IMG/VR virus record: IMGVR_UViG_3300030098_005893
Span: 1-64,000 of that record
DNA length: 64,000 nucleotides
Direction: 5' to 3' (one strand)
Origin: an uncultured virus (IMG/VR IMGVR_UViG_3300030098_005893)
Lineage: Duplodnaviria; Heunggongvirae; Uroviricota; Caudoviricetes
Shown here: in pieces, positions 18,314-57,044 of the stretch
Position numbering within the stretch: the first letter of the stretch is position 1
How the letters are laid out: each line of letters opens with the position of its first letter
The notes under the pieces: model-generated
The model's input: only the letters and a program-made list of their open reading frames with translations
The model's database searches: none
Told to the model about the DNA's origin: nothing
Position numbers and translations under genes: made by a program

Positions 18314-18435
18314 GATGTGAGTTGAATTGAATTGGATTGAATGTTGATAGTTTAGGTTGGAAAATTTCCTCCCCCCGGAGGGGGAGGTTGCTCACCCGCA
18401 TTGCTACGGGTGAGCCCCGTAGCATCGGGAAGTGT

Positions 18436-29100: not shown

Positions 29101-32100
29101 TGTGGCATCAAAAGCCAATACGACCCCAAAAGAGGCGTGGCAGAAGTGGGCGGGAGCCGTTAAGGCCATTGCAAAACCGGGCATTTGGGAGGGTCTTGAA
29201 GAAGGCACAGACCAAGTCATTTCTTCTCTCGCTTTTGACAGAGGGATTTCCATGGGAGAAGCCCTTAGTGGGGGAGGGAAAGCAGCTATCGCGGGACTGA
29301 TTCTTGGATCGGGAATAGGAGGGTTGATGTCCACCCAGCAAACGGGCGCGATGGCCGAAAACCTATCCAACCCGGATACGGCTCTGGAGGCGTTGAAAGA
29401 CGTTTTTGGCAAAACTGATTACACTCAAGGGGAGGTTGAAGATGCTTTTGAGCTGATAAACTACCCTGCCAATGCCCCGAGCGATGCAGATGCAGCAGCT
29501 CGAAAGCTACAAGCCGGGATATTGGCAAATAGAAGCCTCGCAGAGGCAGAAAGCCGAGCGAAAGCGGCAGTTAAACTTCATAACACAAAGGGCGAGCCAG
29601 AGGCCGCAGAGGCTGCGCTTCAAAAACTGAAAGAGGTCAATGCCGCTAAAGGGCTCCTCAAAATTGCAAGCGGCAAGGTCAATAACGAGCTAGACCTCAC
29701 CTCAGAAGAGCTTGAGGGCGTAAACAAGGTAGTCGATGACTATGGCTCTCCCCTTCTCAGAGAGGTTAATGGCCAGCTTGTAATAACCAAAGCGGGGACA
29801 AATCTCATAACAGAGATATCTCCTGACGCGGCAAGTGAGCTTGTTGCCTTAAATGAAGAGGCAAGGCTAAGGCAGATCAGGGAGGCCTCAGCCCCCAAAG
29901 TAGCCGAAACCGATCCCAAAGTAGCCAAAACCGATCCCAAAGTAGCCAAGCCCAAGGAGGAAGCCGAAACTGCCCCTAAAGAAGCCGAAACTGCTCCTAA
30001 AGAAGCCGAAACTGCTCCTGAAGTAGCCAAAACCGACCCTAAAGTAGCCAAACCTGCGGAGGCAGCAGCCAAGCCAGACGTATCCAAGATAAAAGGAGCG
30101 GCTGTTGAGGGCGGCAGACAGGTTATCCGCAACTCGAAAGGGGAGCATTATTCCAAACGCGCAAGCGCCCAGATACGGCTGGATAGGCTAATCAAGGACA
30201 AGAAGCTGCCTGCTACGGGGTTTAGTGTTGTCGAGGAAGAGGCAGGGAAGTGGATCATTGCAGAGGATGTAAAGGGTGAAGAGGCCGCTCCCTCCGGAGG
30301 GAAGAAGAAGTGGAGGGTCACAATAAAAGGAGTAGGGGAAAAGACGAGAGCCGTTGAGGTTGAGGCCGAAACCAGAACTGATGCCATTGCAGCCGCCGCA
30401 AAGGAAGCAGACACGGCAAAGGGTGAAACGGTGGTTGTGGCTTCTGCTACGCAAATTGAGACGGATGCTCCCGCGACTCAGGAAGCCCCGGAGGAGGCCC
30501 CAGAGGAGACGAAAGAGCCAGAGCCAGCCGCCCACAAGGTGGCCAAGGTTGAGGACGACGCCCCAGACGCAAAGGGGCGTAGGCGCTTCACGGCATATGA
30601 TGAAAAGGGAAACCTTTTGGGGTCGATTGAATATGTAATCAAGGACGGGGTTGCTATCATCAAGGGCCTCGGAGGGGGAGGCGGCAGCAAGGCCAAGACA
30701 AAAATCAGGGGAGGGATGCGGCCCACTTTTGACGCCTTCTTGGATAAACACAAGGTGGTGCAAACGGGGGAAAGCACAGATAATGTATCTAATGCTGGGC
30801 TAAAATTCTTCTATGATCTTCACAAGACGGGAGAATACGAATTCACCCCAGTAAAAGGAACCGCCGTAGAATCTAATTCTATGGCCATTCGGCCAAAAGG
30901 CTGGAAAGGGGAAAAGGGGCTCTCGGCGCTAAAAGCCTTCAGAAGAGTCTTTGGTGGAGATACGGCTTCGGGCAGGAAAGGGGACCTAGCGATTCACACC
31001 GCTGGTGAAATGATCAGGCATCCCCACGCGCTCATTCAGAAGAAGGAAATAGCTCCCGAGGCGAAGGAGGCCCCAGAGGAGGCCCCAGAGGAGACGAAAG
31101 AAACGGCATCTGTAAGGCAAAGGCTACAAGAGCTAAATCTGTTTAATAGGGTTGTCGATGAAACGGAGGAAACCCCTCTCCCCAAGGGCAAGCTATACTC
31201 GATAGACAAGAATGGTAATGTTATACTGAGCCGCAAAGTATCCAGCTTCTCTAAGACAAGGCAGTCAGAGATTAGTGCGGAGATTGTTGCCGAACGGGGA
31301 GCGGCGGGAGCCTTGAGCCAGAAAGAAGGGGAATTCTGGTTCAGCATGCTTCCTAAGCATGAACAAGAGTCCATTGCGCGGGAGGCCCGTCTAAAGCATA
31401 ACATGGGCAAAGACGCGAGCGATGCAGATGTAGTAAGATACATGCTGGCGAAAGGCATGACCCTGAAGATGCTTGAGACGCTTAGCAGGGGAGCCCGAAA
31501 GCTAAGAAAGGGCGACGAAGAAGCGCACAGAACGGTCTTGGGTTATTTCCTCAGGTATCTCAGGAGGTTTGCCGACAGAATAAGAGCTATCACCACAGGG
31601 GACTCATTACTTGCAAGAAGGTTGCAATTTTATGAGAAAATGGCCTTCGCGTTTATTGCGGAGCATACAAACGCAAGAACTCTTGCCTCTCTTGGGATTG
31701 CAATTCCTGACAGCAGGATATCTGACCGCAGAGACGTTGTCCTTCATCCAAACATCAGGAAGACAAAAGATGGGAAATATGAAGTAACTCTTCCGGGTGG
31801 AACTAAGCAAAAGTTCAAAACACTTGCTGAAGCTCGTGAAAAAAACGCCAACAAATACAGAGACCAAACTCTAAACGCACTAAGTATAGCAACAGCCGCG
31901 TTGCGTAGAGGCGGGGGGTTGAGCGCAGACGAGCTTGAGGCGAAGATTGCAATCATTAAGAAAAAAATCTCTACAATTGCGGCAGTAAGGCCCTTTATTA
32001 CAAAGGAGTCTTTATGGGCCAAGTTCACTGTGGTATTTGTAGACGGTGAGTATACGTCTCTGATTGAAGAATACAAAAAGGCCAAGCCGAAAAGCGAAAG

Positions 32101-35100
32101 GGCACAAAAATTAGAAGACGCTATAGCTGCCTATTTGGGCAAGTTGGTCAAACTTAATGAAGACATCACTCGGGATCTGGAAAACGCAACGCTCAGGGAG
32201 AAGTCTCGTGGGGCTCTGGCAGCCAGTAGGATGGTTGCCTCCTTCGCCGCCGATGTGGCAGATGGAAACCTCGCCCAAACAGAGCCAATGCGACAGGCAA
32301 GACGAGAGTTCTTGGCTTTGGTCGGAAAAGGGCCTGTTCAGGAAAGATTACGCAAATTGCCAGAGCTTGTATTACGACAAGAAAGAATAACTGAAAGAAT
32401 AGCCGCTCTTGCCACTGAGGAGGAAGCCGTAGGAGGCCTTCCTCTTTTCGATGACGCAGCAGACCCCGCCGAGATGGCCAACCTGAAAAAGGAGCTGGGT
32501 CAGGTTACCAATGATATAGCTTCAGCCCATGCCGAGCTGGACGCAGATTATGCCGCAAAAGTAGGAAGGCTGGCCCCGCGCAAAACCCAAAAGGCTACGA
32601 CTAGAGGAATCTCGCAACGGGTTAGCGTTCCGGGCAGGGGGCTCAAGTCCGTCATGGGACTTACGAGAGAAGCTGATGCCTCAACCATACTGCATGAGTT
32701 TGTCCACGTATTGCAAAAAACTCCGGACGAAACAAACCCAGATCAATCTCTTTGGGATTCCGCTTTGGGTAGAAAAAATGCAGCCAAGCTAAGAAAGTGG
32801 GCCAAATCGGTTAATCCCGCCGAACCTGAAGAGGCAGAAGCGGAGGCGATGGAGACCTACCTTAAAGAAGGAAAAGGAAGAGGGCTTGAGGTTGCCCCTT
32901 CCCTGCTTGACGCCTTTTCAAGGGTCGCCTCGGCTATTTATGGGGTCTACGGGGACACCATGAGGGAAAAGGGCGGGGGATACGACATACCTGAGGAAAC
33001 AGTGGCGAGTCTTGATGCGCTTTTTGCGGACCCAGTAATAATCGGGAACTCAGTAACCGCTAACGCCGCCAAGATTAGGGATCAGGTCCAACGCTTCTGG
33101 GATGGAGCGATGCCGATAAGCGAGGAAGAGGTCATTCTTGGTCTTCCAAACGGAGCCGTTCAAGTTGGCTTCAAAAAAGCAAAGGTAGCCAAACAGCTTA
33201 TTGAAAAGAACTACCGAGCCTTTTTCGGGGACAGCGCAAAGGTCGTTGAGTATGAGGGCAAGTTTTATGCGGGGCTGGATATAAACAAAGCCTTCGGGGA
33301 GACTGAGAGAGGATTTGGTCCAAGCCTGCAAAGAACCAAGGCGAAGAGGCCTAACGCTGGCAACGATAGATTCCGGGTTGGGACCTCAAGATCGGACTCT
33401 ACAAGGCGGCGAGACACTGCCAGCAACATTGGGATAACAACAGTAAGTGACGATCTTCTGGCAAGGCAAATGGAGAAGTTTGATTACGATCACCTTCCTC
33501 AGAGCATTCGGTCAGAAAGAAACCCGCAAACAAAAAGGGAAAAAGCAATCGAGTGGATGGTCGAAAATATCTTGGCCGTTCATGACGCTCTTCCAAAGGA
33601 GGTAAGAGAGAGGGCGGCCCAGTGGTATGATGGGGCTAGCAAGCTCGCAAATAAGTTAGCCAAGAAATATAAATACACCAAAGTTCAAACCGCTGGCGTT
33701 ATTGCTGTTCTTTCCCCTCAGAATGGTTGGTTCAAAAATGCATCACAAGCCGAGAAGGTTATTGATATTTATGCAAATCACCGGAACGAGGTGATTGATC
33801 CCAAAATCCACGGGGAAGCCATGGAGCTAATAATCTCCAAGGCACAAGCGGCACAGTCGGCCAAGAAAAAGGTTGTAGAGGGGGAGACCCCTAGACAGAA
33901 GGCGCTGAGGCAAGCCTACAACAGGAGGCTCGATGAGCAGAAGCGAGATCAGCGACGAGCCATAATGGAAGGCATAACCGGGTATACTATTAACCAGCTA
34001 GGCAGAATAGACTCGGAACCTCAATCGTGGGCCCTGAGAGTGCTGGCTACGCATTACTGGTCTTCAGAATACAATGTTCTAAGCCCTGAGGGGGATATTT
34101 TGTGGGTGCAGAGAAAGAACCCCACAAAAGCTCAATTGAGAGCCGGAGAAGAGGGCAGCCCATCGACGCATGGCTGGGGTTCCGCCCAAGAAATTGGCAA
34201 TGCAATTGCAATTTTGAAAAATGGCAGTCTTGAAAACCTGCACAGAATACTTGGCAATGAACACAAGGTCCGGAGCTTCTTTAACAACATAGTTGCGCCC
34301 AACAGCGCAATGGGGGACGTAACCATGGATACGCATGCTGTGGCGGCGGCTCACTTGATGCCATGGGGGATATCAGCTATTGCCGTGGATCATAACTTTG
34401 GCGGGAGAGGGATACCGAATTCAAAAGTCGCTGAAGGGGTTTCAGGGCTTTACCACTTATACGCTGATGCATACAGAGAGGCCGCTCGGCGTAGAGGGAT
34501 ACTTCCCCGCGAAATGCAGTCAATTGCTTGGGAGGGCATTCGACTCATCCACCCCAGCGAACAAAAAAAACCAAAACATCTAGCCGAGGCCACTAAAACG
34601 TGGAAGAATAACAGCAATGCCAGAGCAAGAAAAATCATCATCAACAGAAGTAGATCCTTCTATCCTGAATGGTTTGTCAGAGAACAAACTCCAAGAACTA
34701 AAAAGGTCACAAAAGGGACTAAAGAAGATGGGTCTCGATTGGAGCCTTCCACAAGTCGCACTACTGGAGCTAAAAGATCCAGAAGACGAGGACGAAGCGC
34801 CCCCAGCCTTCAGCGCGAGAAGGAACTCACCTTCCCGGGAATTCAAAAAGTTGCGGACGGCCCATCGCAAAAAGTTATCGAAACGAGCTTCGGAACACTT
34901 GGAAAAACGGGCGAAGATGCCTACACTTTCCTTACAGAAGTTTACGGAACAAGCGAAGCGTTTAATGAAATCCTAAGGGATACGGGGTTTGCCCCCGGAA
35001 TGTTCACTTACCTGTATCCTAAGGTCAAAAAGGCCGAAAAGGATATATTAAGGGACTGGGCAGAAGAAAACAATTTGCTAAATGACTTTGTCGGGTTCTT

Positions 35101-38100
35101 CCACGAACACGCAAAAAACGGACAGGGAGGATATGAGAACTTTGTTATCCACAAAGGCAAATATGTGGAGAAAGTATATCATGGTGACGCCTCTCTGCTA
35201 GAGCGGCTCCACCAGATTCTATGGCATAACTACTATTTCCCCGAGGCGGCTTATGAGGTTTTGGGGTTCATGGCCAAAGATGACGATTTTTTTATTCATG
35301 TCAGGCAGCCAGCCCTTACGGAGGATCAAGATGGAGAACACCTTACCAAGGAAGAGGCTAAAGAATTCTCATACGATATAAATGACGATGTCATCTTGAT
35401 GGGAGACGGCCAAAAGCCAACAAGGCAGGGAAGGCTGGTCGCAGCGATGGCCGAAATGGGGCTAGTCCCCATTAGCAACACTACCTTTTTTGACCCAGAG
35501 GAAAATGTAATTATTTCCGATCTATATCGCTATAATTTTGCAATAGAGCTTGGGAGGCCCATCCCATTTGACCCGGCTTTGCGCTCAGGAAAATATGGGA
35601 ACAACAAGTTTGGGGGTGTTTTGTTGCAAGACAGCATGATTCAGTTGCTGAAGAAAAAGAACCTTCTTGCAGACCTAACATCCCGCGAAGAAGTCGAGGC
35701 TGGGCCTCACCATCAACCAGAATCGGGAATAGACGTAGGGGAGTATATTGAAGAGGTTACTGCAAAACACATGACCGAACATGCTCCCGCAGAGCATGAA
35801 ATATCTCTTAATGGGCAAAGCGTTTCTAAAGGCCGCCTCACTGGCCTTTTGGGTTCCTCTAAGCCCTCCCTTCAGAAAGCACCGGAGTCTTACCGCAAAT
35901 TGGGGGACCCCCCCGAACGCACTAATTGGAAAGACAACGAAACCCTCCGCAGGGAGGTTGACGATCAATGGTTGGAGCTTGCAAAGGAGAGCGGCCACAC
36001 AACTGTTAAAGGCGAGATGGGCGTTGTCCCAGATGCCGAGATCGGGGGCGAGAAAAGGAAGATGCTCGCAAAGTTCACAAGAAGGTTGGCCGAGATGGCC
36101 GGACTCGTGCCGTCCCCCCATTTGCCTCCGACCTTGTTCCATGGGACAATGCGTCAATTTACGGCATTTAAGGTCAGGGATGACCACACCCTTGTTGGGG
36201 AAGACGGTGACATGGTCCTGTCCAACTATTGGGGGAACGGAGTTTACCTTACTACTTCAAACCAAGACGCATATCACAACTACGCTAGAGTTGGCCCAGA
36301 CATGAGGGCCGAGGCTAAGCAAAGAGCCAAGGAAATACTAGAGGCTCCTACAGTATTTCAATCGTCGCAACTTGCAAGAGCGGGACAGCGAGGGGTGACT
36401 CGGGAACAGCAAGCCTATGTTATTGCGCTTGCAGAGCTAAGCCTTGATGCCGAAGGCTCCTTTGTTCATGAGGTATATGTCCAACTTGAAAACCCAGCTA
36501 TCATAGGCCCGGATGAGCGAGGGGTGCATGTGAGGTTCAGTCCTGCCGTTGACGTAAATCACCCTGTCTTAGACGCAGTTGAGGCGGTAAGGCAAAACCT
36601 TGAAGAGAAGCATGATGTAGTAGCCCCAAGAATGGAAGCGATGGCCAAGTTGGCCGAAATCTTGGTGGATAGTCGAGGGGCCAGCTATGAAAGAGTTGGC
36701 AACTTCCTGAGAGACAACCTTCTCTATATCGCCTTTGAAAAGGGGGCTATGGCCACCAAAGTGCCGCTTGATCCTCAAGAAATGGCCAGAAGGGTATTTG
36801 CTGCCCTTGGGCACGATGGAATTATTGACCGGAGAGCTGGCAGCAAGTTCAGGAAGATGAAGGGGGTGGACCCCGATACGGCGCATGTCCTTGTCTTCCG
36901 CCCCGAACAAGTGAAATCGGCAGATGCTGTCACCTACCACCCGATCACCAAGGAAATCGTCTTGCCTTCACAGCGGTTCGATTTCACAAGCTCGCAGATT
37001 AACTTGCAAGGCGGGGTTGATGAAAGAGGAGCAAGAGCATCAAGATCGGTTGGAGTCAGAAAGGCTCTTGAGGAGATTGACGAGGTTAAGGGGTGGAATA
37101 GAAATCCTCTCAATACATGGGAAATAGTTACAGACACCGGAGTTGCGTTTGAGGTCCTCAGGTCCAAAGAAAACCACATCTACCTCAAGGCAATTGCAAC
37201 AGTTGGCGAGAGGAAAAAAGGCCACGCAGGAAATGTCCTTGAGAAGCTCAAGCAAATTGCTGACAAACATGACGTAGGGATCGAGCTGTATCCTAGCGCG
37301 TTTATTGAACGCACCGGAGAAAGGGGAGACGAGCTAACGCAAAAAGAGCTGGAAAACTTCTACAAGAAGCGAGGATTCGTTAGACAAAAATCAGCATATG
37401 GGGGCCCGGGGTCAGAGTTTTTCTACCACAAAAACCCGTTAGCATTTAACCCCCACATTAACGAGGACCCGCAGTCGGCAGAAGAGGCAATAGAGTCTCT
37501 CAGGCTTGCAAATAGGGGTGAGGACCTAAGCCAGATGGATACTGGCATGTTTTCAGAGGACTTTGAGGAGTCGTATTACGAGCCATGGTCTTTTGAGGTG
37601 CCGGGGAGATTCCTTATCGCAGACAGCAGCCCTGAGCATATAGCAGACCTAGATAGGTATATCGGGGCCATGGAAGACGCGGCCATAGAATATAGCGGCT
37701 CTGAATCTGTTGACCCGAACTTTGAAGACTACATTGATCTCCGCATCAGGTTGATGCAGGTGTTGAGTGACTTTCTTCAGGAGCCAAGTTTCTCAAGAGG
37801 TTTCCCGCCCACACGTTCCGGAAGGCCATCATTGCAACGAGGCATTGATGACGCTGACGCAGATAAGCCGTCTGACCTTCAAGAGTCATCCACTTTTGAT
37901 ATAGACAGGATGCTGAAGCTGGTTGGCAAGAACATGTATGGCACCAACCCGGCAGGGATTCTGGGCAAAGAGCTGTTCCAAAACTCCGTGGACGCTGTCA
38001 TGAAGAAGCAGAAGGAGGAGGAGGCTAAAATGCCAGCTAGGATAGAACAGTTCGTCCGTGACGAATGGTCTAAAGCTGGAGTGTTGGAGGACCAAGTAGA

Positions 38101-41100
38101 GAGCGCCGTAGAGAATGCTCTATGGCGATGGGAGACTGACGGAATTACGCCAGAAGGCTTTAATGAGTATGAGCCCACTATTTTGGTTCACGAAGGAGGG
38201 ACTTGGTTTGGACAGGAGGGGGCAGTTCTTTTGAAGGATGAGAGCGGGGAGATGTTTGAGGGCAAACTGCTCTCGTTTGCCGACAACGGTATCGGAATGT
38301 CTCCTGAGACCGTGTGGAGCAAGTTTTTGCCAGCCTTTGTATCGGCAAAAGGAGTTGGAGAAGGGGGAGGGTTTGGAATTGCAAAACTGGTATTCCTGAT
38401 GGGTCCTAACAACGTCAGGGTGTCCACGGTCAACGAAGACGCCGAGGGGCGCAGAATTATGACGGAAGTGGAGATCAAGCCCGGGGCTTACAAGAGATTC
38501 CTGAACAAAGGGAAAGTAGCAACTCCAGACAACATGCTGGAGCCCGGAAACGAGACGGAGGTTGTCCCGGGCTTGACCATAAAGGTTAGCTACGCCCCTG
38601 AAATGACATCAGGAGCAGACACGGGGACGGCATACATAATGGGCACCCCTAACCCTAATGACCCTAATAATGAGCAGTGGAACTACGCAAAGAATGCAAG
38701 CTGGAACAGGGCAGTTGAGTTTATACGAGAGGCATCAGAATTGACTCCTCACGTTAGTCTTGCAACCGAAACCCACAACGCAAGTATCCGGAGCCAGCTT
38801 ATGGGAACAAGCACCCTGTATGAAAAGAGGGAGGCTGGGGAGAAGCCAAGGATTGCCAAGGGCGACACTTGGTTTGAGATTTATGACGGGGAAACGCAAA
38901 GAAAGAAAACGAGGGAATATGTAATAGCGGCAATCAGGAGGCAGGATTTGGAGCTGGTCGAGAGGTATGGCAACGACTCTAGGGCATATAAAGATGGCCT
39001 AGAAGAGCGTTCTAGAAATTTAGAGAGGCCTGCAATTTACGAGTATGCGGGAATATCGCGGTGGGCTGCTGAGGCCCCGCTCGACACAGAATTTCTCAGG
39101 CCACAAGACAAAATCAATAACTGGGTTGTTCTTGAAGACGGGAATATCGAAACGGACCTGTTTGAAATGGAGATCCTAGCCAAGGAGGGAGACAGGCAGA
39201 TTCAAAGCGGATCAATTCAGGCCAAAATACTCAACAGGACGATATACCAGTTTGATGAAACAGTTTCGATGGGGGTCGGTGAAGAGGGACTCGTCCCCGC
39301 CGGTGGAATTGCAATCAACATAAGGTCAAAGGTTGGAGCGGGTGAGGCGGGTTATCCATTTAGCTTAGACAGGAACAATGTTTCGCAGGAGGTCAAAGAC
39401 GAGATAAACACCTTTATGGGCAAATTGGCCCATATTGCCTATACCAAACAAAGAAACCAGTGGGTAAACCGCAGGAAAAACACGGTTCTAATTAGAAGGC
39501 CCGATAAGGGCGAAGAACAGTATGGCCCAGAAGCAGAAGAGTTTGCAAGTTATGCAGCCGTTAAGGAGTGGGGACAAGAGCCCGGGGACTATATAGAAGT
39601 TCCCGGCGAGTTTCATTTTTTGGATCTGTCTGGGACCTTAGACGAGGGGGTTGTGGAGGAATTTGCAAAAGACCCTGTAATTGCCCAAATCGCTGAAGAC
39701 TATTACGAGATTCAAGGGAGGGTATTAAAGTATCTGAAGCTGAGGAACCAGCATGACCCAGATTTTGGAAGGGCTGGGTTTGCGGGATTTGCAGTCGGAA
39801 CTAACGCATACGGACTTCACTTTCCTTTGAAGTATGTGATGGATAAAAAGTTCGTTTCGGACAACCCAACCGACAGCCCTCCCAGCCTTATTTACCATGA
39901 CCCTCTTGCAACATTGCAACATGTCATAGATGAGCATTCGGTTGGAGAACTCGCAGAAATAGGTGGAGCAGTTCTTCCCGGGAAAGGCCTTCAAGACTTC
40001 AAAAGTGGCGCCCCCATGGCCTATTATACAGGGCTATATCAGGTGTTTTTAGATGAAGTGGCCGGAATTGCCGTCCACGAAGCCCTGCATCAGTCCATTC
40101 ACTCCGAGGGGGTTTCCCTTGCTAGGGGTCTTACATTTAATGCCGGGGGACTCGCATCAACTCTCCAAGGATTTGCAACCGTCCAAGATGTTTTGGGAAC
40201 TACGGACCCAGACGAGCTTGCAAAAAGAGCAAAAATCAGAACAGATAAACTAAAGGATTATTATGAGCAGTTTGAGCAAGATTTTGACGAACAAGAGGCG
40301 CAGGCATTTATTACTGGGACGGGTGCTAAAGGATACAACCTTAGAATTGAGGGACCGAGAGGACGCGGAAAAGGAGCTTATCCAACTGGAAAGCCAGATA
40401 GCCCGGATCAGAAACAAGATGATGGCCGTCAAAAAGGAGGGAAGCTGAGCCTTCAGGGCCTAAAAGACGCCGAGGAAGGCGCTGAGAGAGCCAAGAAAAG
40501 GATGGATAGGCGGGGGAAGCCGCTCCGCGAAAGGTTTAGGATTTTCAGGAAGAGGGACGACAGGACTGCCGCTGGAGCCAAAGTGGTCAAGGGTGACCCG
40601 TCCAGAGCCAAGGTGGGAGAGACCCCTGAGGTGAGAAATGCATATGATGTTTCTCAGGAGATATACAATGACACATATATCGCGCAGAACTTCCCTGAAT
40701 GGATGTCTGGCGCAGCCAAGGTAAGAAAGACAGAGGGTGACGATGAAATAAGAAAGAAAATATACGAATCTGCCGAGAAGCTAGGCCAACCCGGGACTCC
40801 TGAATTCCAAATTGCCTCAATGCAGGTTGTTGCAGACGACTTCCAAAGAGCCCTAGCGTCCGGAAATCAGACAGACATAGATAACGCCATGGCTCTCGCT
40901 CATGCGTTTCAGGAGTTAAGGTCTGAAATTGCAAGAACGATGACCTCAATGCGGGACCCGTTCCAGACCCCGGCTCAAAGGGCCGCATACGCTTTAGGTC
41001 AGGCTATAACTCAAGCCCCGCCGCTTCAGGTTAGAGCGTTGCAAAAAAAGCATGGAGCCAAAGAGGCCGGAGACGAAATACCCTCGCAAAATAAGGAGGC

Positions 41101-43816
41101 ATATAAAGAGGACCTCAAAAAGATGGACCGAAATAGGCTGGATAAGTCTAAGGCTGCACTTGTGAGGAGAGGTATGGGAGTAGAGGAAATCTTCAACTCT
41201 AGCAATGAGGGGGTTGCGATTGGGACAAAAGTGGATAAAGACGCTCTTGGCAAGCTCCCGCCAAAACAGCGCAAAGTTGTAGAGATGGCCCGAGAAGGAG
41301 CAGACCCAGAGGCCATTGAAATGGCGACCGGGGTTTCTCAGAAGGGCCAGAAGCGAGCCTTAGAGAAATTCAGGGAAGTCCTTCGCCCTGCGGTGGAATC
41401 TCTGGTGCAAAGAGGCTTCAACGAGGGCAACATGCAGGAATTTGCAAGTGGAAAGCCCCCTGCTGGAAACACCAAGCCCGGAACAAAGGAGGATGTGGAG
41501 AAGGTTCTGTCGAAATCATTTAAGGCTTCTATTGAGGCTTTAAGCCAAAAAGGTTTCAACATAAACAACCCTACTCATGTAATGGCCGCCTTTAGGGCCC
41601 TTGATGATGTAGACTTGGATTATGTGACAAGAACAATGGGAACATGGTATGCAAACGTGTTCTCATCCAAGACGGTGTTAATTAACATGCTGTCGATCCC
41701 GTTCGCGGGTTACCGAGCAATAGCAGAGAGAGGGGTCGAGTCGCTCTTCAATCATTTGCTAAAACACCCCGAGGTATCCACTGCTCCGGAGTTTAAGTAT
41801 ATCGCTAAGGGCTTAAAGACCTATGCCTCGATGGCGTTTTATCAGGCGTTTATGGCTTTCGACACGGAGACGGCATATTTCAACACTTTTGCAAAAGGTG
41901 AGACTTCAGAAGGGAGCCCATACAAAGGGGAGACTCACGAAGAGGTCCGGGGATACCAGATGGGCCACATTTTAGACGGCTTCGATATACTGATCGACAA
42001 ATACGTGTCGCTCCCCGGGATTAAGAAGAAAGGCGAATCTCTAAAAAGGCCCTCTCTTGTCAGGAGGGCGATTGGAGAAAAGGGAGCCACAACGGAATTC
42101 CGTCTTGGGAAAATGGGAAGAGGAGTCCTCCGGTTCAACATGGGAGTTGATGAGTTCATGCGGTTTATGGTGGCGGGGTCAGAAATCGGCGGCATTGCAT
42201 ACAGGATGGGCCGATCGAAGGGCCTTGATGGCGATGCTCTAGAGGAGTTTATCCACAAGGAGATGACGATTCCCGGGTCATCCAGTTGGATTGCCGCCGC
42301 CAATGAGGCTAATATATCAGTATTCACTCAAGACCTTCCGGATTTCCGGAAAGGAGACGTTCCTAAGTCAATTGGAGGAGTGCTTTCTGCCGCCATTAAC
42401 GGCTTGGATCAGTTCTTCAAGGGAAATGAAAAAGCTCTGAGGGCCAGCAAGGAGGTTAGCAAGGTCACAGAAAGCGGAATCACAAAACTCGCAGATGTGG
42501 CGCTTATAGACGGAACGCGCATAGGATTAGGGGTATTCCGTGTAGCCATGATTCCTTTTGCTAGGGTTTTGGCTAACTTGGTCGTAGTGGCATACGAGCG
42601 CGTTCCCAACCCGATCTCCTTAATGTGGCATGGATACCATGTTGCAAAATACGCGGCAAAGCATCGCGGACTACAAGGGGAGGACAGGATGGATATGGCT
42701 GCCGCCAACTCAATAAGGAAGGTGTCTCGGCAGACCTTGGCCCACATCATAGCGTGGGCGTTGCTAGGAATGTTTGAGGGAGACGATGATGACGGAGAAA
42801 AGCCTATCTTAATAACGGGGTCTATGCCCAAGTTCAGAAAGGGTGCCTCAGCAGAAAGGCGAGCTGCCTACAGGGAGGGGATGGGCCCATATAAGATCCG
42901 AGTAAAGGCTGATGCAAATGTGTATGGAATCCCGGTCGGAAAGATTCTAGGCCTAGAGGAAGACTACACGTTTGACTACGGGAGGATTGATCCCGGCGCT
43001 TTAATTCTAGGAACAACCGTAGACTGGGTCAGAGAGTTCAAAAAGCTGGGGAGAGGTGACACGACGATGTTTGAGGCTGGATATGTGCTTGCCGCAGATA
43101 CAGTAGCGGCCCAATTGACCGACAAAACAATGCTTCGTGGGATGAATGACGCCTTTGGGATGATTTCAGGCCGGGTAACGCCGTATAAATGGACTGCAAG
43201 GAACCTTGCAACAATTCTTGTCCCCAACCTTATTCGGCAACCTATTAGGGATGGGAACCTTTACTATGATGCCACCCTGTCCGTAAGTGACGCTGAGTCC
43301 TTTAAGAGAATGCTTCTTTATGAAATGTTCCCGAATGCAGACAGCAGGATTCTTGGTTTTGATGTCCCATTTAAGAGCAAGTTTGCCCCCGGAGCATCAA
43401 GAGATGCATACGGGGAGCTAATGAAAAGACCCCGTGGGTTTGGTTCATGGATTGCAAAGCAGCAGCCGCACAAGCTGAGATTCTTTGACCAAATGATTAG
43501 GGCCCAGCGAAAAATGGAGCCCTTTAGAGAGGACATTTCCTTGCCCATGCCAATCAGCAATGAGTATGTCTACACCGACGAAGAAACGGGGCTCAAGCAG
43601 AAGCACAAGATGACTCCGTTGCAGTATGACATTGTGCAAAGGGCGTTTCAAAGTATCTGGCAAACAGAGAGGCTCTCTGTTACGAATGCTGACGAAGTAT
43701 CCAAGGCCCGGAGAAGGGCAAGCGATGCCGCTAGGGAAATTGCGTATAAAACACCAGCATTCTTAATCGACGCCAAGCGCGAATTTAATAGGAGAATCGA
43801 GAAGAAAAAGCGATGA
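26114..43816 (+). CDS. Giant polyvalent virion/ejection protein (5900 aa): zincin HExxH, HhH glycosylase-like, kinase, ADP-ribosyltransferase, GNAT(s), GHKL ATPase
   Basis: Uninterrupted 17.7-kb ORF directly upstream of the portal. Motifs ADASTILHEFVH; AVLSPQ..W..N/VTMDTHA; HNYYFP/DL...N/FDP; FHGT/GVYLT/GHDGI/VFRPEQVKS; KGHAG/FYKKRGF; ELFQNSVDA/DNGIGM/GGFGIA. Confidence 0.88.
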   Translation: MADMEESYKDAPVENPYGNDSMDDFQAGIARHQRNIDALVREQEQRKAERKRLEDARQAEIDRVAGERARRQNEVILQRAKEDGLDDYLVPDSEGVLRSSLTEDQIARHRANKKLEEEEMAKRSLAKEQASRTDPGSLKDQLSQIDVLSEAKRKSEEESLQANRDQIRYLEASVWEEKDQLISGVREKIRASENALKADDEAIDQKAAIEAEILRNQRIAEGFPEDLARDVDGRRTWTAPPAEDDPEAGGKWLDAYNREVEINNSRREQISETEKKAADAYQKRVKELESSFVEWAESGATPKQIAEAKETLQDEWGKATAEYLKERYKFESELKKSEARSKSLDLLRPIVGDYLEDLKGYYRGKEEEAEKAQKQKRDAIADKLKKEYYETFGKIPLDGREYVDPADPVLNEIFKEQQKLIKKGWEGVPDDYEHLGPYAASMGPIGSKEDKIDYAQWRLSELDAAFGRRIEFLMARNSEVIMSLQEILWKMGSTSALPGSPSLLKQMGKYNFDSNLVLESHRFPLYNKEDSPVFDRVEAGVATVPLQIAANISLAFGYGLSRLVGHTARTVKKAAPGTQYKEYRRFDEWLENSGLTHSEAKHGMQEVLKGWKKWGKPNEEMARYRADGVILLNPDLNVLDRGLYKKAIESTDAPSFIKKHYLGEGAQERIRNVYASSIEHQANAAYAGPGGIPMPNEWMKEAYPDNSLSIMDDVEEMANKRAELREQIGTLDESDPALTGLKKEEEELTKNIEMMRDVAKNARAEWRKNTPEYSEQIEEWLRLYGRDKPLAYFTRPARSLALGGGKFLQTITGVGAILEVPGARNATLSLADGIEEQRVARDFAGGAIPVVSAITDVIGEEGPSLVFSLIPGTALGARAAALVRKQVVAGALTKKAASKQVAKAGLRGSAIGAGVQSTGLSWAQYFNDAKRVREEELGRPLTESELNELAKLPAVQGRAVMTGLLTAGTVKAFGFTGTEVVWRKGTNITVRDWWRHVASKANTTPKEAWQKWAGAVKAIAKPGIWEGLEEGTDQVISSLAFDRGISMGEALSGGGKAAIAGLILGSGIGGLMSTQQTGAMAENLSNPDTALEALKDVFGKTDYTQGEVEDAFELINYPANAPSDADAAARKLQAGILANRSLAEAESRAKAAVKLHNTKGEPEAAEAALQKLKEVNAAKGLLKIASGKVNNELDLTSEELEGVNKVVDDYGSPLLREVNGQLVITKAGTNLITEISPDAASELVALNEEARLRQIREASAPKVAETDPKVAKTDPKVAKPKEEAETAPKEAETAPKEAETAPEVAKTDPKVAKPAEAAAKPDVSKIKGAAVEGGRQVIRNSKGEHYSKRASAQIRLDRLIKDKKLPATGFSVVEEEAGKWIIAEDVKGEEAAPSGGKKKWRVTIKGVGEKTRAVEVEAETRTDAIAAAAKEADTAKGETVVVASATQIETDAPATQEAPEEAPEETKEPEPAAHKVAKVEDDAPDAKGRRRFTAYDEKGNLLGSIEYVIKDGVAIIKGLGGGGGSKAKTKIRGGMRPTFDAFLDKHKVVQTGESTDNVSNAGLKFFYDLHKTGEYEFTPVKGTAVESNSMAIRPKGWKGEKGLSALKAFRRVFGGDTASGRKGDLAIHTAGEMIRHPHALIQKKEIAPEAKEAPEEAPEETKETASVRQRLQELNLFNRVVDETEETPLPKGKLYSIDKNGNVILSRKVSSFSKTRQSEISAEIVAERGAAGALSQKEGEFWFSMLPKHEQESIAREARLKHNMGKDASDADVVRYMLAKGMTLKMLETLSRGARKLRKGDEEAHRTVLGYFLRYLRRFADRIRAITTGDSLLARRLQFYEKMAFAFIAEHTNARTLASLGIAIPDSRISDRRDVVLHPNIRKTKDGKYEVTLPGGTKQKFKTLAEAREKNANKYRDQTLNALSIATAALRRGGGLSADELEAKIAIIKKKISTIAAVRPFITKESLWAKFTVVFVDGEYTSLIEEYKKAKPKSERAQKLEDAIAAYLGKLVKLNEDITRDLENATLREKSRGALAASRMVASFAADVADGNLAQTEPMRQARREFLALVGKGPVQERLRKLPELVLRQERITERIAALATEEEAVGGLPLFDDAADPAEMANLKKELGQVTNDIASAHAELDADYAAKVGRLAPRKTQKATTRGISQRVSVPGRGLKSVMGLTREADASTILHEFVHVLQKTPDETNPDQSLWDSALGRKNAAKLRKWAKSVNPAEPEEAEAEAMETYLKEGKGRGLEVAPSLLDAFSRVASAIYGVYGDTMREKGGGYDIPEETVASLDALFADPVIIGNSVTANAAKIRDQVQRFWDGAMPISEEEVILGLPNGAVQVGFKKAKVAKQLIEKNYRAFFGDSAKVVEYEGKFYAGLDINKAFGETERGFGPSLQRTKAKRPNAGNDRFRVGTSRSDSTRRRDTASNIGITTVSDDLLARQMEKFDYDHLPQSIRSERNPQTKREKAIEWMVENILAVHDALPKEVRERAAQWYDGASKLANKLAKKYKYTKVQTAGVIAVLSPQNGWFKNASQAEKVIDIYANHRNEVIDPKIHGEAMELIISKAQAAQSAKKKVVEGETPRQKALRQAYNRRLDEQKRDQRRAIMEGITGYTINQLGRIDSEPQSWALRVLATHYWSSEYNVLSPEGDILWVQRKNPTKAQLRAGEEGSPSTHGWGSAQEIGNAIAILKNGSLENLHRILGNEHKVRSFFNNIVAPNSAMGDVTMDTHAVAAAHLMPWGISAIAVDHNFGGRGIPNSKVAEGVSGLYHLYADAYREAARRRGILPREMQSIAWEGIRLIHPSEQKKPKHLAEATKTWKNNSNARARKIIINRSRSFYPEWFVREQTPRTKKVTKGTKEDGSRLEPSTSRTTGAKRSRRRGRSAPSLQREKELTFPGIQKVADGPSQKVIETSFGTLGKTGEDAYTFLTEVYGTSEAFNEILRDTGFAPGMFTYLYPKVKKAEKDILRDWAEENNLLNDFVGFFHEHAKNGQGGYENFVIHKGKYVEKVYHGDASLLERLHQILWHNYYFPEAAYEVLGFMAKDDDFFIHVRQPALTEDQDGEHLTKEEAKEFSYDINDDVILMGDGQKPTRQGRLVAAMAEMGLVPISNTTFFDPEENVIISDLYRYNFAIELGRPIPFDPALRSGKYGNNKFGGVLLQDSMIQLLKKKNLLADLTSREEVEAGPHHQPESGIDVGEYIEEVTAKHMTEHAPAEHEISLNGQSVSKGRLTGLLGSSKPSLQKAPESYRKLGDPPERTNWKDNETLRREVDDQWLELAKESGHTTVKGEMGVVPDAEIGGEKRKMLAKFTRRLAEMAGLVPSPHLPPTLFHGTMRQFTAFKVRDDHTLVGEDGDMVLSNYWGNGVYLTTSNQDAYHNYARVGPDMRAEAKQRAKEILEAPTVFQSSQLARAGQRGVTREQQAYVIALAELSLDAEGSFVHEVYVQLENPAIIGPDERGVHVRFSPAVDVNHPVLDAVEAVRQNLEEKHDVVAPRMEAMAKLAEILVDSRGASYERVGNFLRDNLLYIAFEKGAMATKVPLDPQEMARRVFAALGHDGIIDRRAGSKFRKMKGVDPDTAHVLVFRPEQVKSADAVTYHPITKEIVLPSQRFDFTSSQINLQGGVDERGARASRSVGVRKALEEIDEVKGWNRNPLNTWEIVTDTGVAFEVLRSKENHIYLKAIATVGERKKGHAGNVLEKLKQIADKHDVGIELYPSAFIERTGERGDELTQKELENFYKKRGFVRQKSAYGGPGSEFFYHKNPLAFNPHINEDPQSAEEAIESLRLANRGEDLSQMDTGMFSEDFEESYYEPWSFEVPGRFLIADSSPEHIADLDRYIGAMEDAAIEYSGSESVDPNFEDYIDLRIRLMQVLSDFLQEPSFSRGFPPTRSGRPSLQRGIDDADADKPSDLQESSTFDIDRMLKLVGKNMYGTNPAGILGKELFQNSVDAVMKKQKEEEAKMPARIEQFVRDEWSKAGVLEDQVESAVENALWRWETDGITPEGFNEYEPTILVHEGGTWFGQEGAVLLKDESGEMFEGKLLSFADNGIGMSPETVWSKFLPAFVSAKGVGEGGGFGIAKLVFLMGPNNVRVSTVNEDAEGRRIMTEVEIKPGAYKRFLNKGKVATPDNMLEPGNETEVVPGLTIKVSYAPEMTSGADTGTAYIMGTPNPNDPNNEQWNYAKNASWNRAVEFIREASELTPHVSLATETHNASIRSQLMGTSTLYEKREAGEKPRIAKGDTWFEIYDGETQRKKTREYVIAAIRRQDLELVERYGNDSRAYKDGLEERSRNLERPAIYEYAGISRWAAEAPLDTEFLRPQDKINNWVVLEDGNIETDLFEMEILAKEGDRQIQSGSIQAKILNRTIYQFDETVSMGVGEEGLVPAGGIAINIRSKVGAGEAGYPFSLDRNNVSQEVKDEINTFMGKLAHIAYTKQRNQWVNRRKNTVLIRRPDKGEEQYGPEAEEFASYAAVKEWGQEPGDYIEVPGEFHFLDLSGTLDEGVVEEFAKDPVIAQIAEDYYEIQGRVLKYLKLRNQHDPDFGRAGFAGFAVGTNAYGLHFPLKYVMDKKFVSDNPTDSPPSLIYHDPLATLQHVIDEHSVGELAEIGGAVLPGKGLQDFKSGAPMAYYTGLYQVFLDEVAGIAVHEALHQSIHSEGVSLARGLTFNAGGLASTLQGFATVQDVLGTTDPDELAKRAKIRTDKLKDYYEQFEQDFDEQEAQAFITGTGAKGYNLRIEGPRGRGKGAYPTGKPDSPDQKQDDGRQKGGKLSLQGLKDAEEGAERAKKRMDRRGKPLRERFRIFRKRDDRTAAGAKVVKGDPSRAKVGETPEVRNAYDVSQEIYNDTYIAQNFPEWMSGAAKVRKTEGDDEIRKKIYESAEKLGQPGTPEFQIASMQVVADDFQRALASGNQTDIDNAMALAHAFQELRSEIARTMTSMRDPFQTPAQRAAYALGQAITQAPPLQVRALQKKHGAKEAGDEIPSQNKEAYKEDLKKMDRNRLDKSKAALVRRGMGVEEIFNSSNEGVAIGTKVDKDALGKLPPKQRKVVEMAREGADPEAIEMATGVSQKGQKRALEKFREVLRPAVESLVQRGFNEGNMQEFASGKPPAGNTKPGTKEDVEKVLSKSFKASIEALSQKGFNINNPTHVMAAFRALDDVDLDYVTRTMGTWYANVFSSKTVLINMLSIPFAGYRAIAERGVESLFNHLLKHPEVSTAPEFKYIAKGLKTYASMAFYQAFMAFDTETAYFNTFAKGETSEGSPYKGETHEEVRGYQMGHILDGFDILIDKYVSLPGIKKKGESLKRPSLVRRAIGEKGATTEFRLGKMGRGVLRFNMGVDEFMRFMVAGSEIGGIAYRMGRSKGLDGDALEEFIHKEMTIPGSSSWIAAANEANISVFTQDLPDFRKGDVPKSIGGVLSAAINGLDQFFKGNEKALRASKEVSKVTESGITKLADVALIDGTRIGLGVFRVAMIPFARVLANLVVVAYERVPNPISLMWHGYHVAKYAAKHRGLQGEDRMDMAAANSIRKVSRQTLAHIIAWALLGMFEGDDDDGEKPILITGSMPKFRKGASAERRAAYREGMGPYKIRVKADANVYGIPVGKILGLEEDYTFDYGRIDPGALILGTTVDWVREFKKLGRGDTTMFEAGYVLAADTVAAQLTDKTMLRGMNDAFGMISGRVTPYKWTARNLATILVPNLIRQPIRDGNLYYDATLSVSDAESFKRMLLYEMFPNADSRILGFDVPFKSKFAPGASRDAYGELMKRPRGFGSWIAKQQPHKLRFFDQMIRAQRKMEPFREDISLPMPISNEYVYTDEETGLKQKHKMTPLQYDIVQRAFQSIWQTERLSVTNADEVSKARRRASDAAREIAYKTPAFLIDAKREFNRRIEKKKR
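29893..30056 (+). repeat. 21-bp (7-aa) coding tandem repeat
   Basis: About 8 units of PKVA(E/K)TD or PKEAETA. Confidence 0.9.
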
Positions 43817-46065
43817 GTGAAGAAGGACAAGCAGGAGCTATAAGCCAAGTTCAAGCGGTTGCCGAAAAGGTAATTACCGCCCCCAAGCCACCTGTTGATG
43901 CGGGAGAAAAAGAGAAGCCTAAGGTTGTCTTTGAGAGCCCATTGCAACTTACTGCAAGACAGGAAAACCGCCTTATTGAGCATGCCTTGTCAAGGATCTC
44001 GACACTGGAAAACGAGCTTGGACGGGGGTCAACCTCTCAGGCCAGTTGGTATGGACGAGGCTTTGACGACACGGTGAAACAGGCTGCTGGTTCGTTTATG
44101 GGTAAAAGGCAGCTATACGAGATGACTTTCCACAACCAGATAGATTGGAGGGCATACTTGGTCGGGGGCATTTTTGCAGAGTCCAACCTCACTGTTCCCC
44201 TGTCTCGGAGGATCGCTCAGCAGCAGATTTCCCGAGCCGTTAGCTACTTCCTCGGGACGGAGCCATGGTTTGGGGCCTACCCGGTAAGCAAGAGCGACGA
44301 AGAGCCTGCGGACGTAACGGACAAGTATTGCAAGCACAAGGCTAAGCAGGCTGACCTCAAGGGGACAATTATGTCTGCCGTAGAAGGAGCTATCATCAGA
44401 GGAGAGACCGTTTCTAAGACAATTTACCGTCAAGAATGGACTCAATTCAACAAGGAGGCGGCAATTGCGGTGGATTCAGAAGGCGTCCCCTTTGTGGCGG
44501 CAGATGCGGATTACATTTATGAGAGCGACCAATGGGCGCAAGTGGCAGGACAAGAGGGCCAAGTTACCATGGAGGAGGTGAAGCCCATTTGGATTTTAGC
44601 CAGAGATGGCGAAACACGACTTCCGGAAGGGGTCGAAAGCCCTGACATGCTTAGGTTTGAAGTGCAAATAGTTCCAAGGCAAAAAGTCCAGTATCAAGGG
44701 GCAGAGTCGAAGCCTATTTACTACAAGGACTTCTTGGCTCCGCTTGATGCTCCCAGCCTAGACGATGCCGACATATGCGTTCACCTGTATGACAAGCCAG
44801 CAATTGAAATTGCATCACTTTATGTGTCTGCTCTGGATAACGAGGGAGAGACTACCAGAGAAACGGCGGGTAAGATTTTTGAGTCATTGCAAGAGCTTGT
44901 TCGCATTGATGACCACAGAAAAGCATTTGGGACAAAGGAGAGACCGGAACTCGGGGAAAGCCCGGGGCACGAAAAGGTAAACGCTGAAGACGACAACAAG
45001 AAAATAGACACGGGGCTAGAGGGAGAGCCAGTTGTCGAAATTGCCGAGGTTTACATTCATTTTGACGCAGATGAAGACGGAGTTCAGGAGGACATCGTCA
45101 TTATGCTGGATAAGAAAAATCGCAGGCCATTGTTCTATGACTATGTTGCAAACAGGACCCCTGATGGGCGTAGGCCATTTAATGTCACCCGGGTAAACCG
45201 AGTAGAGGGCCGCTGGCACGGGATCGGCACCATGGAGGTGTTCCAGCCATTGCAGGAAGTAGTGGATCTACTGGTCAACAGATGGAACCACTCCCAATCC
45301 CGCTCCGGAAATGTAATCTTCTGGAACCCTGAGCTTACTTTAGAGGGAGAAGAAAACCCTCATTTAGAACTTAACGGGGGTAGGACATACACCCCCAAAG
45401 GAAACATCGACCCGGAGACTATCCTCAAAGTCATTCCGCTGTATGACGTTAAGGGCCGGGAAATCTACAAAGAGATCGAGTTCTTCATGCAGGTTGCAAT
45501 TAACATGAGCGGAGTGTCTCATGTAAATGATGCCGCCATGCTTGGAATGGACACAGCCAAGCTAGCCACCGGGGTCAAGAACATCGAGAGATCCGGGCAG
45601 GAAATGTTCTCGATATACCTAAGTCAGTTGCAAGACGGATTAGAGGACCTGCTCAAGCAGTTCTGCGTATACACCCTAGCTTACCTAGATGTGCGAGAGG
45701 CGTTTTTGTATACAGAGGACGAGGCCGCCCAAATGTTGCAATTTGGGCCCGAAAACGTCGATAAGCAGCTAGATATGGATGTTCGCCTAGAGATGACGAG
45801 ATACAAGAATGAGCAGGAACTTGTTCAGGCGCAACAGGCTAGCGCCAAGGTTATCGAGTTTTATTCCCTTCCCCCAGAATTACAGGTTCGCACTTCCCAG
45901 CTTTACAGGCAGATGCTAAAGGCAATGCAGGTTTCTCATGTGGACGAGATTATCCAGCCCGGCTTTCAGATTCCCCCACAAGGCACTCCCTCCGGGGGGA
46001 GCGGGAATCCTCAGGCCATAAACACGCAGGATAACATGCCCGGACAGCAGCCGCCTGTAGTATGA
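43813..46065 (+). CDS. Portal protein
   Basis: 750 aa, upstream of scaffold and capsid; RPF...GRWHGIG, LATGV motifs and Q/P-rich tail resemble podovirus portals. Confidence 0.8.
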   Translation: MSEEGQAGAISQVQAVAEKVITAPKPPVDAGEKEKPKVVFESPLQLTARQENRLIEHALSRISTLENELGRGSTSQASWYGRGFDDTVKQAAGSFMGKRQLYEMTFHNQIDWRAYLVGGIFAESNLTVPLSRRIAQQQISRAVSYFLGTEPWFGAYPVSKSDEEPADVTDKYCKHKAKQADLKGTIMSAVEGAIIRGETVSKTIYRQEWTQFNKEAAIAVDSEGVPFVAADADYIYESDQWAQVAGQEGQVTMEEVKPIWILARDGETRLPEGVESPDMLRFEVQIVPRQKVQYQGAESKPIYYKDFLAPLDAPSLDDADICVHLYDKPAIEIASLYVSALDNEGETTRETAGKIFESLQELVRIDDHRKAFGTKERPELGESPGHEKVNAEDDNKKIDTGLEGEPVVEIAEVYIHFDADEDGVQEDIVIMLDKKNRRPLFYDYVANRTPDGRRPFNVTRVNRVEGRWHGIGTMEVFQPLQEVVDLLVNRWNHSQSRSGNVIFWNPELTLEGEENPHLELNGGRTYTPKGNIDPETILKVIPLYDVKGREIYKEIEFFMQVAINMSGVSHVNDAAMLGMDTAKLATGVKNIERSGQEMFSIYLSQLQDGLEDLLKQFCVYTLAYLDVREAFLYTEDEAAQMLQFGPENVDKQLDMDVRLEMTRYKNEQELVQAQQASAKVIEFYSLPPELQVRTSQLYRQMLKAMQVSHVDEIIQPGFQIPPQGTPSGGSGNPQAINTQDNMPGQQPPVV

Positions 46066-46349
46066 GCATTGACAAGGAAAAGCAAGAGTATGACCGGGCC
46101 CAGAAGGTGGGCGAAAGAGTCGAGAGAATGTGCAGGGAAGAGGGGTGGAGTGACCACTTTATCCCTATGATCCAGAAAAGGAGGGATGAGGCGCAGTCTA
46201 TCGTAAACGACCCAGACAGTGATCAGCTAACCACCCAGCTAAACAGAGGGGTCATAAAGGTCTGCGACGAGGTCTTGGGATACAGGGAATACAGCGAGGC
46301 CCGAGCCGGGAAGATTATGAGGTCCGCTGTTGCCGCCAAGATGCGCTAG
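46062..46349 (+). CDS. Small helical protein following the portal
   Basis: 4-bp overlap with the portal; EEGW...I pattern usual at this position. Confidence 0.7.
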   Translation: MSIDKEKQEYDRAQKVGERVERMCREEGWSDHFIPMIQKRRDEAQSIVNDPDSDQLTTQLNRGVIKVCDEVLGYREYSEARAGKIMRSAVAAKMR

Positions 46350-56033: not shown

Positions 56034-56053
56034 TCTCCCCCCGGAGGGAGGCT

Positions 56054-56760: not shown

Positions 56761-56777
56761 CCAACCAACTGAATCCA

Positions 56778-57044
56778 ATGGAATATACCCAAAGTGCAAA
56801 CGTAAAGGCCAAGTTCAAGGATAGCGGCATTGATGCCCTGCCCGTGGACATAAGCTCAACCGATCAGACTCTGTCGCAGGTCGCTAGAGCTTTGGTCATC
56901 GGGACTGCCGGGAACCTTAAAGTGACCACGTTGCAAGGCAACACTGTGACGCTTGTAGGTGTCCCCGCTGGGGTCTTGCCTCTCTGTGTCACGAAAGTGT
57001 TCAGAACAGGAACGACCGCAGCCAACATTAGTGCAATTTTTTAG
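56778..57044 (+). CDS. Head spike base protein (Rcc01079-like)
   Basis: RALVIGTAGNLKV...VPAGVLPL.V.KV..TGTTA. Confidence 0.7.
   Translation: MEYTQSANVKAKFKDSGIDALPVDISSTDQTLSQVARALVIGTAGNLKVTTLQGNTVTLVGVPAGVLPLCVTKVFRTGTTAANISAIF

Follow-up and report, generated by a model that had tools for sequence, protein, structure and literature searches.

The 64,000-nucleotide (nt) stretch analyzed here (the window; positions 1 to 64,000 of IMG/VR record IMGVR_UViG_3300030098_005893, from an uncultured virus of the Caudoviricetes) contains a giant open reading frame (ORF) that encodes a phage polyvalent protein. Our analysis indicates that this giant protein is probably a self-processing polyvalent ejection protein, which would be cut at short repeated tags by a predicted peptidase embedded in the same chain. 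Five swappable modules, each followed by a tag of the form x-[S/N]-L-Q, appear to sit between a constant N-terminal half, which ends in the predicted zinc peptidase, and a C-terminal region that is likewise constant (Table 1). As in other members of the polyvalent class, the giant ORF adjoins the head genes of a terminase-portal phage, and several disparate enzymatic domains lie in one large polypeptide (PF23802, PF18762, and PF18760 above the cut-off; GNAT-like and GHKL by ESM Atlas). The conserved sites repeated at its domain boundaries are a feature of self-processing polyproteins.

Repeated tags mark the module seams

A sequence-only reading of this DNA had described a giant virion protein with (P/L/I)(S/N)LQ junctions, and all of its motif coordinates proved correct: HEFVH at 32693 (aa 2194), four PSLQ, one INLQ, and one LSLQ. 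The tags fall at the seams of the succession DUF7178/Kinase-PolyVal/ART-PolyVal/GNAT-like/GHKL ATPase/C-terminal region and not inside the modules, and division at the tags yields segments with one enzyme-like family apiece. Among the 4-mers of the giant protein, PSLQ shows the strongest over-representation (4 observed versus 0.039 expected). None of 1,000 shuffles contained at least four PSLQ, and any equally rare 4-mer occurred at least four times in only 2 of 1,000. The dipeptide LQ by itself is present in 27 copies (16 expected), 21 of them away from seams. Tag 1 lies in an unstructured tail (predicted local distance difference test, pLDDT, <50) beyond the last predicted helix in the first of two AlphaFold models. 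The G/S/R-rich linkers that had been claimed for every tag were found before three of the six (0.45 to 0.60 versus 0.20 overall), the remaining values being 0.20, 0.25, and 0.30.

As also noted previously, codons differ between tag copies (AGC/TCC/TCA for Ser, CTG/CTT/TTG for Leu, and CAA/CAG for Gln, with both serine families represented in the six 12-mers), and no tag pair was among the 20 largest DNA repeat families listed; a DNA-level repeat at the tags was rejected on these grounds. A head-maturation signal common to capsid, portal, or scaffold proteins was rejected as well, because no PSLQ-type match was found in these proteins.

Orthologues swap cargo and keep the tags

Homologue searches returned 36, 7, and 3 proteins. 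Five orthologues (P0002, P0003, P0037, P0038, and P0042) carry both scaffolds and the peptidase over their full length. No further relatives were found in GTDB contigs or among 614- to 2,000-aa proteins, and IMG/VR searches with the peptidase region recovered near-identical contigs only. The same slot houses 0, 4, 4, 5, and 6 modules in the five orthologues, n modules corresponding to n+1 seams. P0002 is co-linear with the protein studied here and 48% identical to it over the tagged part; its seams read LLFQ, PTFQ, PLMQ, ILLQ, PTFQ, and PTMQ. In this comparison, [LFM]Q was found within 8 alignment columns of all six seams (within 3 columns of four; background, 0.138; p about 7e-6), and the tags persist where the 41 residues around them are only 22 to 49% identical. 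Tags were present at four of the five seams of the four-module P0003 (ANLQ, VQLQ, VQLQ, VQLQ, and IQLS), at 5/5 seams of P0037, also with four modules (ASLQ, VQLQ, AQLQ, GSFQ, and PQLQ), and at six of the seven seams of P0038, with six modules (SDLP, IQLQ, VQLQ, VQLQ, AQLQ, VQLQ, and VSLQ). P0042 is cargo-free: its peptidase region is followed by IANLQ and then by the C-terminal scaffold, so that its single seam is tagged.

Overall, 28/30 seams read [LFM]Q. This count is partly circular, since the exact seam residue in relatives was taken to be the [LFM]Q closest to the break in homology; BLAST breakpoints fall at most of the seams. When a matrix was trained on P0003, P0037, P0038, and P0042 alone, the six seams of the giant protein came out at ranks 1, 2, 4, 6, 8, and 10 among about 5,880 positions, and leave-one-out matrices performed well on P0003, P0037, and P0038 except for the two seams without Q. 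In a 97.5% identical relative (L010), tag 4 bears two synonymous changes and no amino-acid change; overall, changes affected 0/24 tag residues versus 7/300 flank residues, a comparison of low power. Homologues keep the tags when modules are swapped, and the motifs sit between modules, so that two outcomes which the sequence-only reading had named as refuting it did not occur.

Table 1. Positions in the window of the giant ORF, its parts, and two head genes (aa, amino acids)
Feature	Position	Strand	Remarks
Giant ORF, phage polyvalent protein	26114..43816	+	5,900 aa
N-terminal scaffold	26114..32605	+	aa 1-2164; present in each of the six full-length orthologues; no recognised seam tags
Optional insert	30467..31101	+	about 195 aa, aa about 1452-1662; between two 50-nt direct repeats; no LQ tag
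Predicted zincin-like metallopeptidase	32606..33043	+	HEFVH aa 2194-2198 (32693-32707); candidate third ligand E2240 (32831-32833)
Tag 1, PSLQ	33320..33331	+	aa 2403-2406
Module 1, DUF7178 (PF23802)	33332..34801	+	Pfam E 1.5e-26; PHROG 3842
Tag 2, PSLQ	34802..34813	+	aa 2897-2900
Module 2, Kinase-PolyVal (PF18762)	34814..35863	+	Pfam E 1.5e-15
Tag 3, PSLQ	35864..35875	+	aa 3251-3254
Module 3, ART-PolyVal (PF18760), predicted ADP-ribosyltransferase	35876..36997	+	Pfam E 1.8e-8
Tag 4, INLQ	36998..37009	+	aa 3629-3632; end of ART tail SQRF-x6-I-xxx
Module 4, GNAT-like acetyltransferase and helical tail	37010..37825	+	ESM Atlas neighbours, motifs
Tag 5, PSLQ	37826..37837	+	aa 3905-3908
Module 5, GHKL ATPase with own HExxH (HEALH)	37838..40444	+	Atlas, N-box and G-box motifs
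Tag 6, LSLQ	40445..40456	+	aa 4778-4781
C-terminal scaffold	40457..43813	+	1,119 aa; 40-64% identical in orthologues
Portal protein	43813..46065	+	PF23899 E 1e-12; PHROG 1216
Major capsid protein	49441..50970	+	no tag match

The predicted peptidase and its relation to the tags

The domain upstream of tag 1 combines an HExxH helix with a Glu on a later helix, the arrangement of zincin-like metallopeptidases. H2194, E2195, H2198, and E2240 are invariant in 8/8 aligned relatives and lie on predicted helices in both AlphaFold models of the region, which were built from 5 and 8 sequences and are of low confidence (predicted template modeling score, pTM, 0.37 and 0.41). Our own peptidase profile matches domains of the HETGH...HEQFA type at E 3e-13 to 3e-6. 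An hhalign comparison of the alignment with P0020 matched DUF7178 instead of the peptidase. HEFVH belongs to the only HExxH domain common to all six full-length orthologues. Because of this, and because, as described below, the kind of tag goes with the protease-like domain from one lineage to the next, the sequence comparisons lend indirect support to a link between the tags and the HEFVH domain. As a side observation, P0043 (309 aa) consists of the peptidase region alone and ends about where tag 1 would be; it could represent a fragment or a protein that is naturally split there.

Modules that different lineages have in common are re-tagged. The ART tail SQRF[DN]-x5-I-xxx ends with NLQ, LLQ, or QLS in this lineage and with LFN, LRN, or LYN in a sister lineage. 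Similarly, a module that is 54% identical between P0038 and P0021 ends with VQLQ in the former and with VLNQ in the latter. Different repeated words, which were chosen after inspection, come after the DUF7178 modules of other lineages: DVLGAR, [FY][SA]R, FSL, GREQ, KEQID, KGKAS, and AEQR. In all nine profile-matched proteins with neither scaffold (E 3e-13 to 3e-6), L[FNYT]Q immediately precedes the peptidase, and L[RAYF]N is the tag of a lineage that has the C-terminal scaffold in common with this one (about 25% identity) and whose peptidase was missed by the profile. These patterns are suggestive of a tag type that tracks the protease-like domain instead of the C-terminal scaffold. When 28 peptidase domains were placed in a tree, which has several long branches, the five close rows grouped at 93/97.

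Proteins lacking HExxH failed as a negative control, since P0007 and P0041 turned out to carry EExxH-type variants together with tags; the peptidase-like domain of P0041 has its EExxH-type motif at aa about 1340, and ILFN is kept after the ART of this protein. In P0008, P0010, P0011, P0012, P0017, P0024, and P0026, the profile finds no peptidase domain and tags are not firmly callable. The FAK repeats of P0040 were discarded, as they look like chance matches inside domains. In P0008 and P0017, which have no HExxH, each of two different modules has behind it, in place of a short tag, a copy of one and the same helical stretch (VLTA/VD-TKD...).

Scaffolds, modules, and the untagged insert

The N-terminal scaffold has no family match in Pfam, PHROGs, or NCBIfam; the C-terminal scaffold has no family match either, and both match no LPD family in Pfam. 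Among the domain labels proposed in the sequence-only reading, kinase and ART were borne out by Pfam, GNAT and GHKL rest on ESM Atlas neighbours and motifs, and the HhH-like label was unconfirmed, module 1 being DUF7178. Beyond DUF7178, this module had no family match and no PDB sequence match below E 1, and we found no paper mentioning DUF7178. Module 4 has Atlas neighbours at 0.90 to 0.93, with Acetyltransf families on 11 to 82% of members, and contains KKGHAG and FYKKRGF; it had no Pfam, NCBIfam, or PDB sequence match. For module 5, Atlas neighbours at 0.96 carry HATPase_c_3 on 70 to 73% of members and the motifs ELFQNSVDA, DNGIGM, and GGGFG are present, with a Pfam match of only E 0.17, below the cut-off. 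The Atlas neighbours of modules 4 and 5 are mostly viral clusters of 142 to 177 aa and 479 to 631 aa, respectively, so that such modules likely exist as separate proteins. A second HExxH motif absent from the sequence-only reading, HEALH (aa 4655; 40076-40090), is located at the end of the GHKL module, and HEALH or HEGMH is kept in the GHKL modules of 4/4 carriers (this protein, P0002, P0037, and P0038). Judging from these motifs, module 5 is possibly a GHKL ATPase fused to a peptidase or metal site.

The N-terminal half contains an optional insert, likewise absent from the sequence-only reading, whose 50-nt direct repeats are 88% alike (EAPEEAPEETKE and EAPEESPEETKE). The insert is cleanly absent from L010 and unmatched in P0002. 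It looks GNAT-like by eye; its likeness to the GNAT module is not significant (E 0.12), and no Pfam or NCBIfam family matched. P0003 has an extra HExxH domain (aa 1496) at the same variable N-terminal spot. A 21-nt tandem repeat in the N-terminal half (29870-30087) encodes ETDPKVA/ETAPKEA-like units.

Proposed processing of the giant protein

Its gene position and class make it likely that the giant protein is packed in the head and ejected with the DNA, the scaffolds serving, as we propose, to pack it. The peptidase, which would remain in the N-terminal piece, would then cut at each tag, generating pieces of about 264, 56, 40, 42, 31, 97, and 125 kDa, and the freed kinase, ADP-ribosyltransferase, acetyltransferase, and ATPase would act on the host. 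We infer that cutting occurs during or after ejection rather than before packaging, because free modules would lose their packaging scaffold. The bond cut may be the one just before L or the one just after Q. Zincins of the thermolysin type usually cleave ahead of hydrophobic residues, which favors the S/LQ bond (between S and L); Gln is the most constant residue of the tag, which favors a cut beside Q. The tag of P0042 parts the N-terminal half from the C-terminal region with no enzyme to free, and a cut there would thus also serve the scaffold.

Tentatively, with doubt somewhat outweighing confidence, we extend this proposal to a plug-and-play protease code run by phages, in which the zincin built into an ejection protein would read a lineage-private tag, any enzyme module that acquires this tag could be inserted between the scaffold halves, and modules moving between lineages would be re-tagged to suit the new protease. 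The ancestral cut, kept in the cargo-free form, would split the scaffold, cargo release having been added later to what was a maturation step in the DNA-ejection machinery. The new N-termini would be Leu if the cut falls before L, or Arg/Lys at four of the six sites if it falls after Q. Under the N-end rule, such termini could act as bacterial N-degrons and time-limit the injected enzymes.

Several observations weigh against self-processing. No curated peptidase family (Pfam, PHROGs, or NCBIfam) matches the peptidase segment, which is linked to other polyvalent HExxH domains only by our own profile. Both low-confidence models lack the three-stranded sheet, and Foldseek searches of PDB and BFVD found no match at E<=0.001. 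VIA gave zincins only at Z 3.5 to 4.9 among unrelated helical folds, and its match 3dl1 (Z 4.9; root-mean-square deviation, 3.8; 94 aligned) was tied with unrelated folds. As for the tags, two seams lack Q (SDLP and IQLS), and the matrix fails on held-out P0002 (ranks 28 to 1183) and is weak on P0042 (rank 59). The untagged insert upstream of the peptidase indicates that not every module of the giant gene carries a tag. Across lineages, the two Q-tag groups are joined by a weakly supported branch (80/36), and Q also occurs in the tags of other peptidase groups (GREQ, EQID, and AEQR). The peptidase-like domain of P0007 has EExxH (aa about 930), yet RARL is found at four apparent seams. A blind shared-word test on the flanks of DUF7178 gave no support (p<=0.05 in 4/27 proteins with HExxH and in 1/8 without); this test had low power over its 35 proteins (P0033 was left out because of a split match) and also missed P0002 and P0003. 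Finally, according to the parts of PMC5512222 available to us, a domain of this type is present in the virion RNA polymerase of N4, in ArdC, and in TraC1, all of which remain full-length proteins.

Alternative explanations for the tags

It is unlikely, although conceivable, that the tags are cut sites of another protease, i.e., the product of a solo HExxH gene, the HExxH of the GHKL module, or a host enzyme. The small solo gene, which the sequence-only reading did not mention, lies directly after the terminase gene, outside the window (G000:C1 64392-64721, +). Its HEMIH and downstream EEAVV motifs make its product a candidate trans-acting protease and a further point against self-processing. 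The conservation of HEALH/HEGMH in the GHKL modules of all four carriers and the repeated tag that P0007 retains despite its changed active-site motif would also fit cutting by another enzyme. However, tags are kept in P0003 and P0042, both without a GHKL module, and the HExxH of this module was rejected as the required protease for this reason. A host protease fits poorly, given that the tags vary from one phage lineage to another and go with the built-in peptidase, not with the scaffold.

Somewhat less probable still, the tags might remain uncut and act as short binding marks, through which the scaffold, the portal, or the HExxH domain would pack, pace, or refold modules during ejection, with the peptidase acting elsewhere, e.g., on the cell wall. 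In favor of such marks, related domains occur in proteins delivered whole (PMC5512222, in part), and the metallopeptidase of phi24B gp47 is proposed to degrade peptidoglycan in the accessible portion of bioRxiv 10.64898/2026.04.10.717836. The persistence of the tag without cargo in P0042 fits as well, but a tag of only 2 to 4 residues that goes with the peptidase instead of the C-terminal scaffold does not. Its hydrophobic-Gln form is, moreover, usual for protease sites.

We consider it very improbable that the tags are scars of module insertion, left by DNA micro-homology or duplication and devoid of protein function. The repeat-flanked insert, missing from its 97.5% identical relative, argues that repeat-mediated gain or loss of modules happens in the giant gene. 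Nevertheless, the tags differ in their codons, including AGC versus TCN serine; the changes at tag 4 in L010 are synonymous only (with low power); and the tags survive in diverged surroundings. Chance in a very long protein, to which the commonness of LQ and the negative blind flank test might point, is hardly credible given the rarity of such 4-mers in shuffles and the orthologue and held-out tests. Cutting of the tags by the built-in peptidase is thus the reading that we favor.

Genome setting

The window covers nearly all of the phage genome, which consists of 64,943 bases on one contig whose two ends overlap by about 100 bases. The stop of the giant ORF overlaps the start of the portal gene at 43813, and capsid, tail-fibre, lysozyme, and terminase genes follow 3′ of the latter on the same strand. 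Between the portal and scaffold-like genes, two ORFs of 331 and 233 aa lie on the opposite strand (46346-48042, −), for which family searches gave no match. The translated end of the ORF at 56030-56563 contains X residues; the assembly has undefined bases at about 56545-56780, and this gene may be longer. Elsewhere in the window, a MoxR-type AAA ATPase (AAA_5, E 5e-17) is encoded beside a VWA protein that contains a long G/E/Q repeat (16493-19989, −), G+C being about 60% across this region versus 50% around it. An ORF at 1316-1816 (−) has a LexA-type DNA-binding domain (E 1.5e-10) and encodes a possible repressor.

Comparison with known systems

In the main-text parts available to us, Iyer et al. 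2017 (PMC5512222) define the phage polyvalent proteins, propose their autoproteolytic release by the metallopeptidase, and draw the analogy to RNA-virus polyproteins; PMC9503650 restates the class in the portion consulted. The polyvalent proteins with a zincin-like metallopeptidase described there (PMC5512222) resemble the giant protein in the proximity of a giant gene to head genes, HExxH with a downstream Glu, Kinase-PolyVal, ART-PolyVal, and a GNAT-like module. In contrast to these, the protein studied here has a tag at every seam, a cargo-free orthologue, re-tagged modules, and scaffolds that match no LPD family. Those main-text parts, supplements aside, name no junction motif or cut site, and neither junction tags nor a mapped cut were found described in the openly accessible literature outside the 2017 supplements.

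P1 DdrB and the virion RNA polymerase of N4 are likewise head-packed proteins with a metallopeptidase, and DdrB is processed before packaging (PMC5512222, same parts). As for differences, no site is mapped in them in those parts, the N4 polymerase is packed uncut, and neither is described there as a multi-cassette array. In the accessible part of bioRxiv 10.1101/2020.03.07.982082, gp65-gp67 of crAss-like phages (phi14:2) form a virion polyprotein with a zincin-like domain, the fused forms being "likely cleaved"; this system differs in its RNA polymerase cargo, and no site is given in that part. No RNA polymerase family (Pfam, PHROGs, or NCBIfam) matched the giant protein. The 2,811-aa gp47 of Stx phage phi24B, found in virions by proteomics, is also a polyvalent protein with a metallopeptidase and a proposed ejection protein, but its domains are LPD5, LPD1, and LPD38, the proposed target of its peptidase is peptidoglycan, and processing is not addressed in the accessible portion (bioRxiv 10.64898/2026.04.10.717836).

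The tagged, swappable cassette slot is new within the known polyvalent class. The locus makes the self-cutting proposal of 2017 directly testable through six exact candidate sites, a predicted catalytic residue (E2195), and predicted fragment sizes, and it provides natural controls in the cargo-free orthologue and the re-tagged modules. If our reading is true, the tags would also provide a rule for dividing unannotated giant proteins into functional units and would point to new sequence-specific proteases. In RNA-virus polyproteins, a 3C-like protease is embedded in one chain with repeated [L/F/M]-Q sites. The giant protein would share the single chain, the embedded protease, and the repeated [L/F/M]-Q sites, a likeness that implies no homology; here the virus is a DNA phage, the protease is a metallo- and not a cysteine enzyme, and the residue after Q is not confined to small ones. 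DNA phages would then deliver a changeable set of enzymes by RNA-virus-style polyprotein processing.

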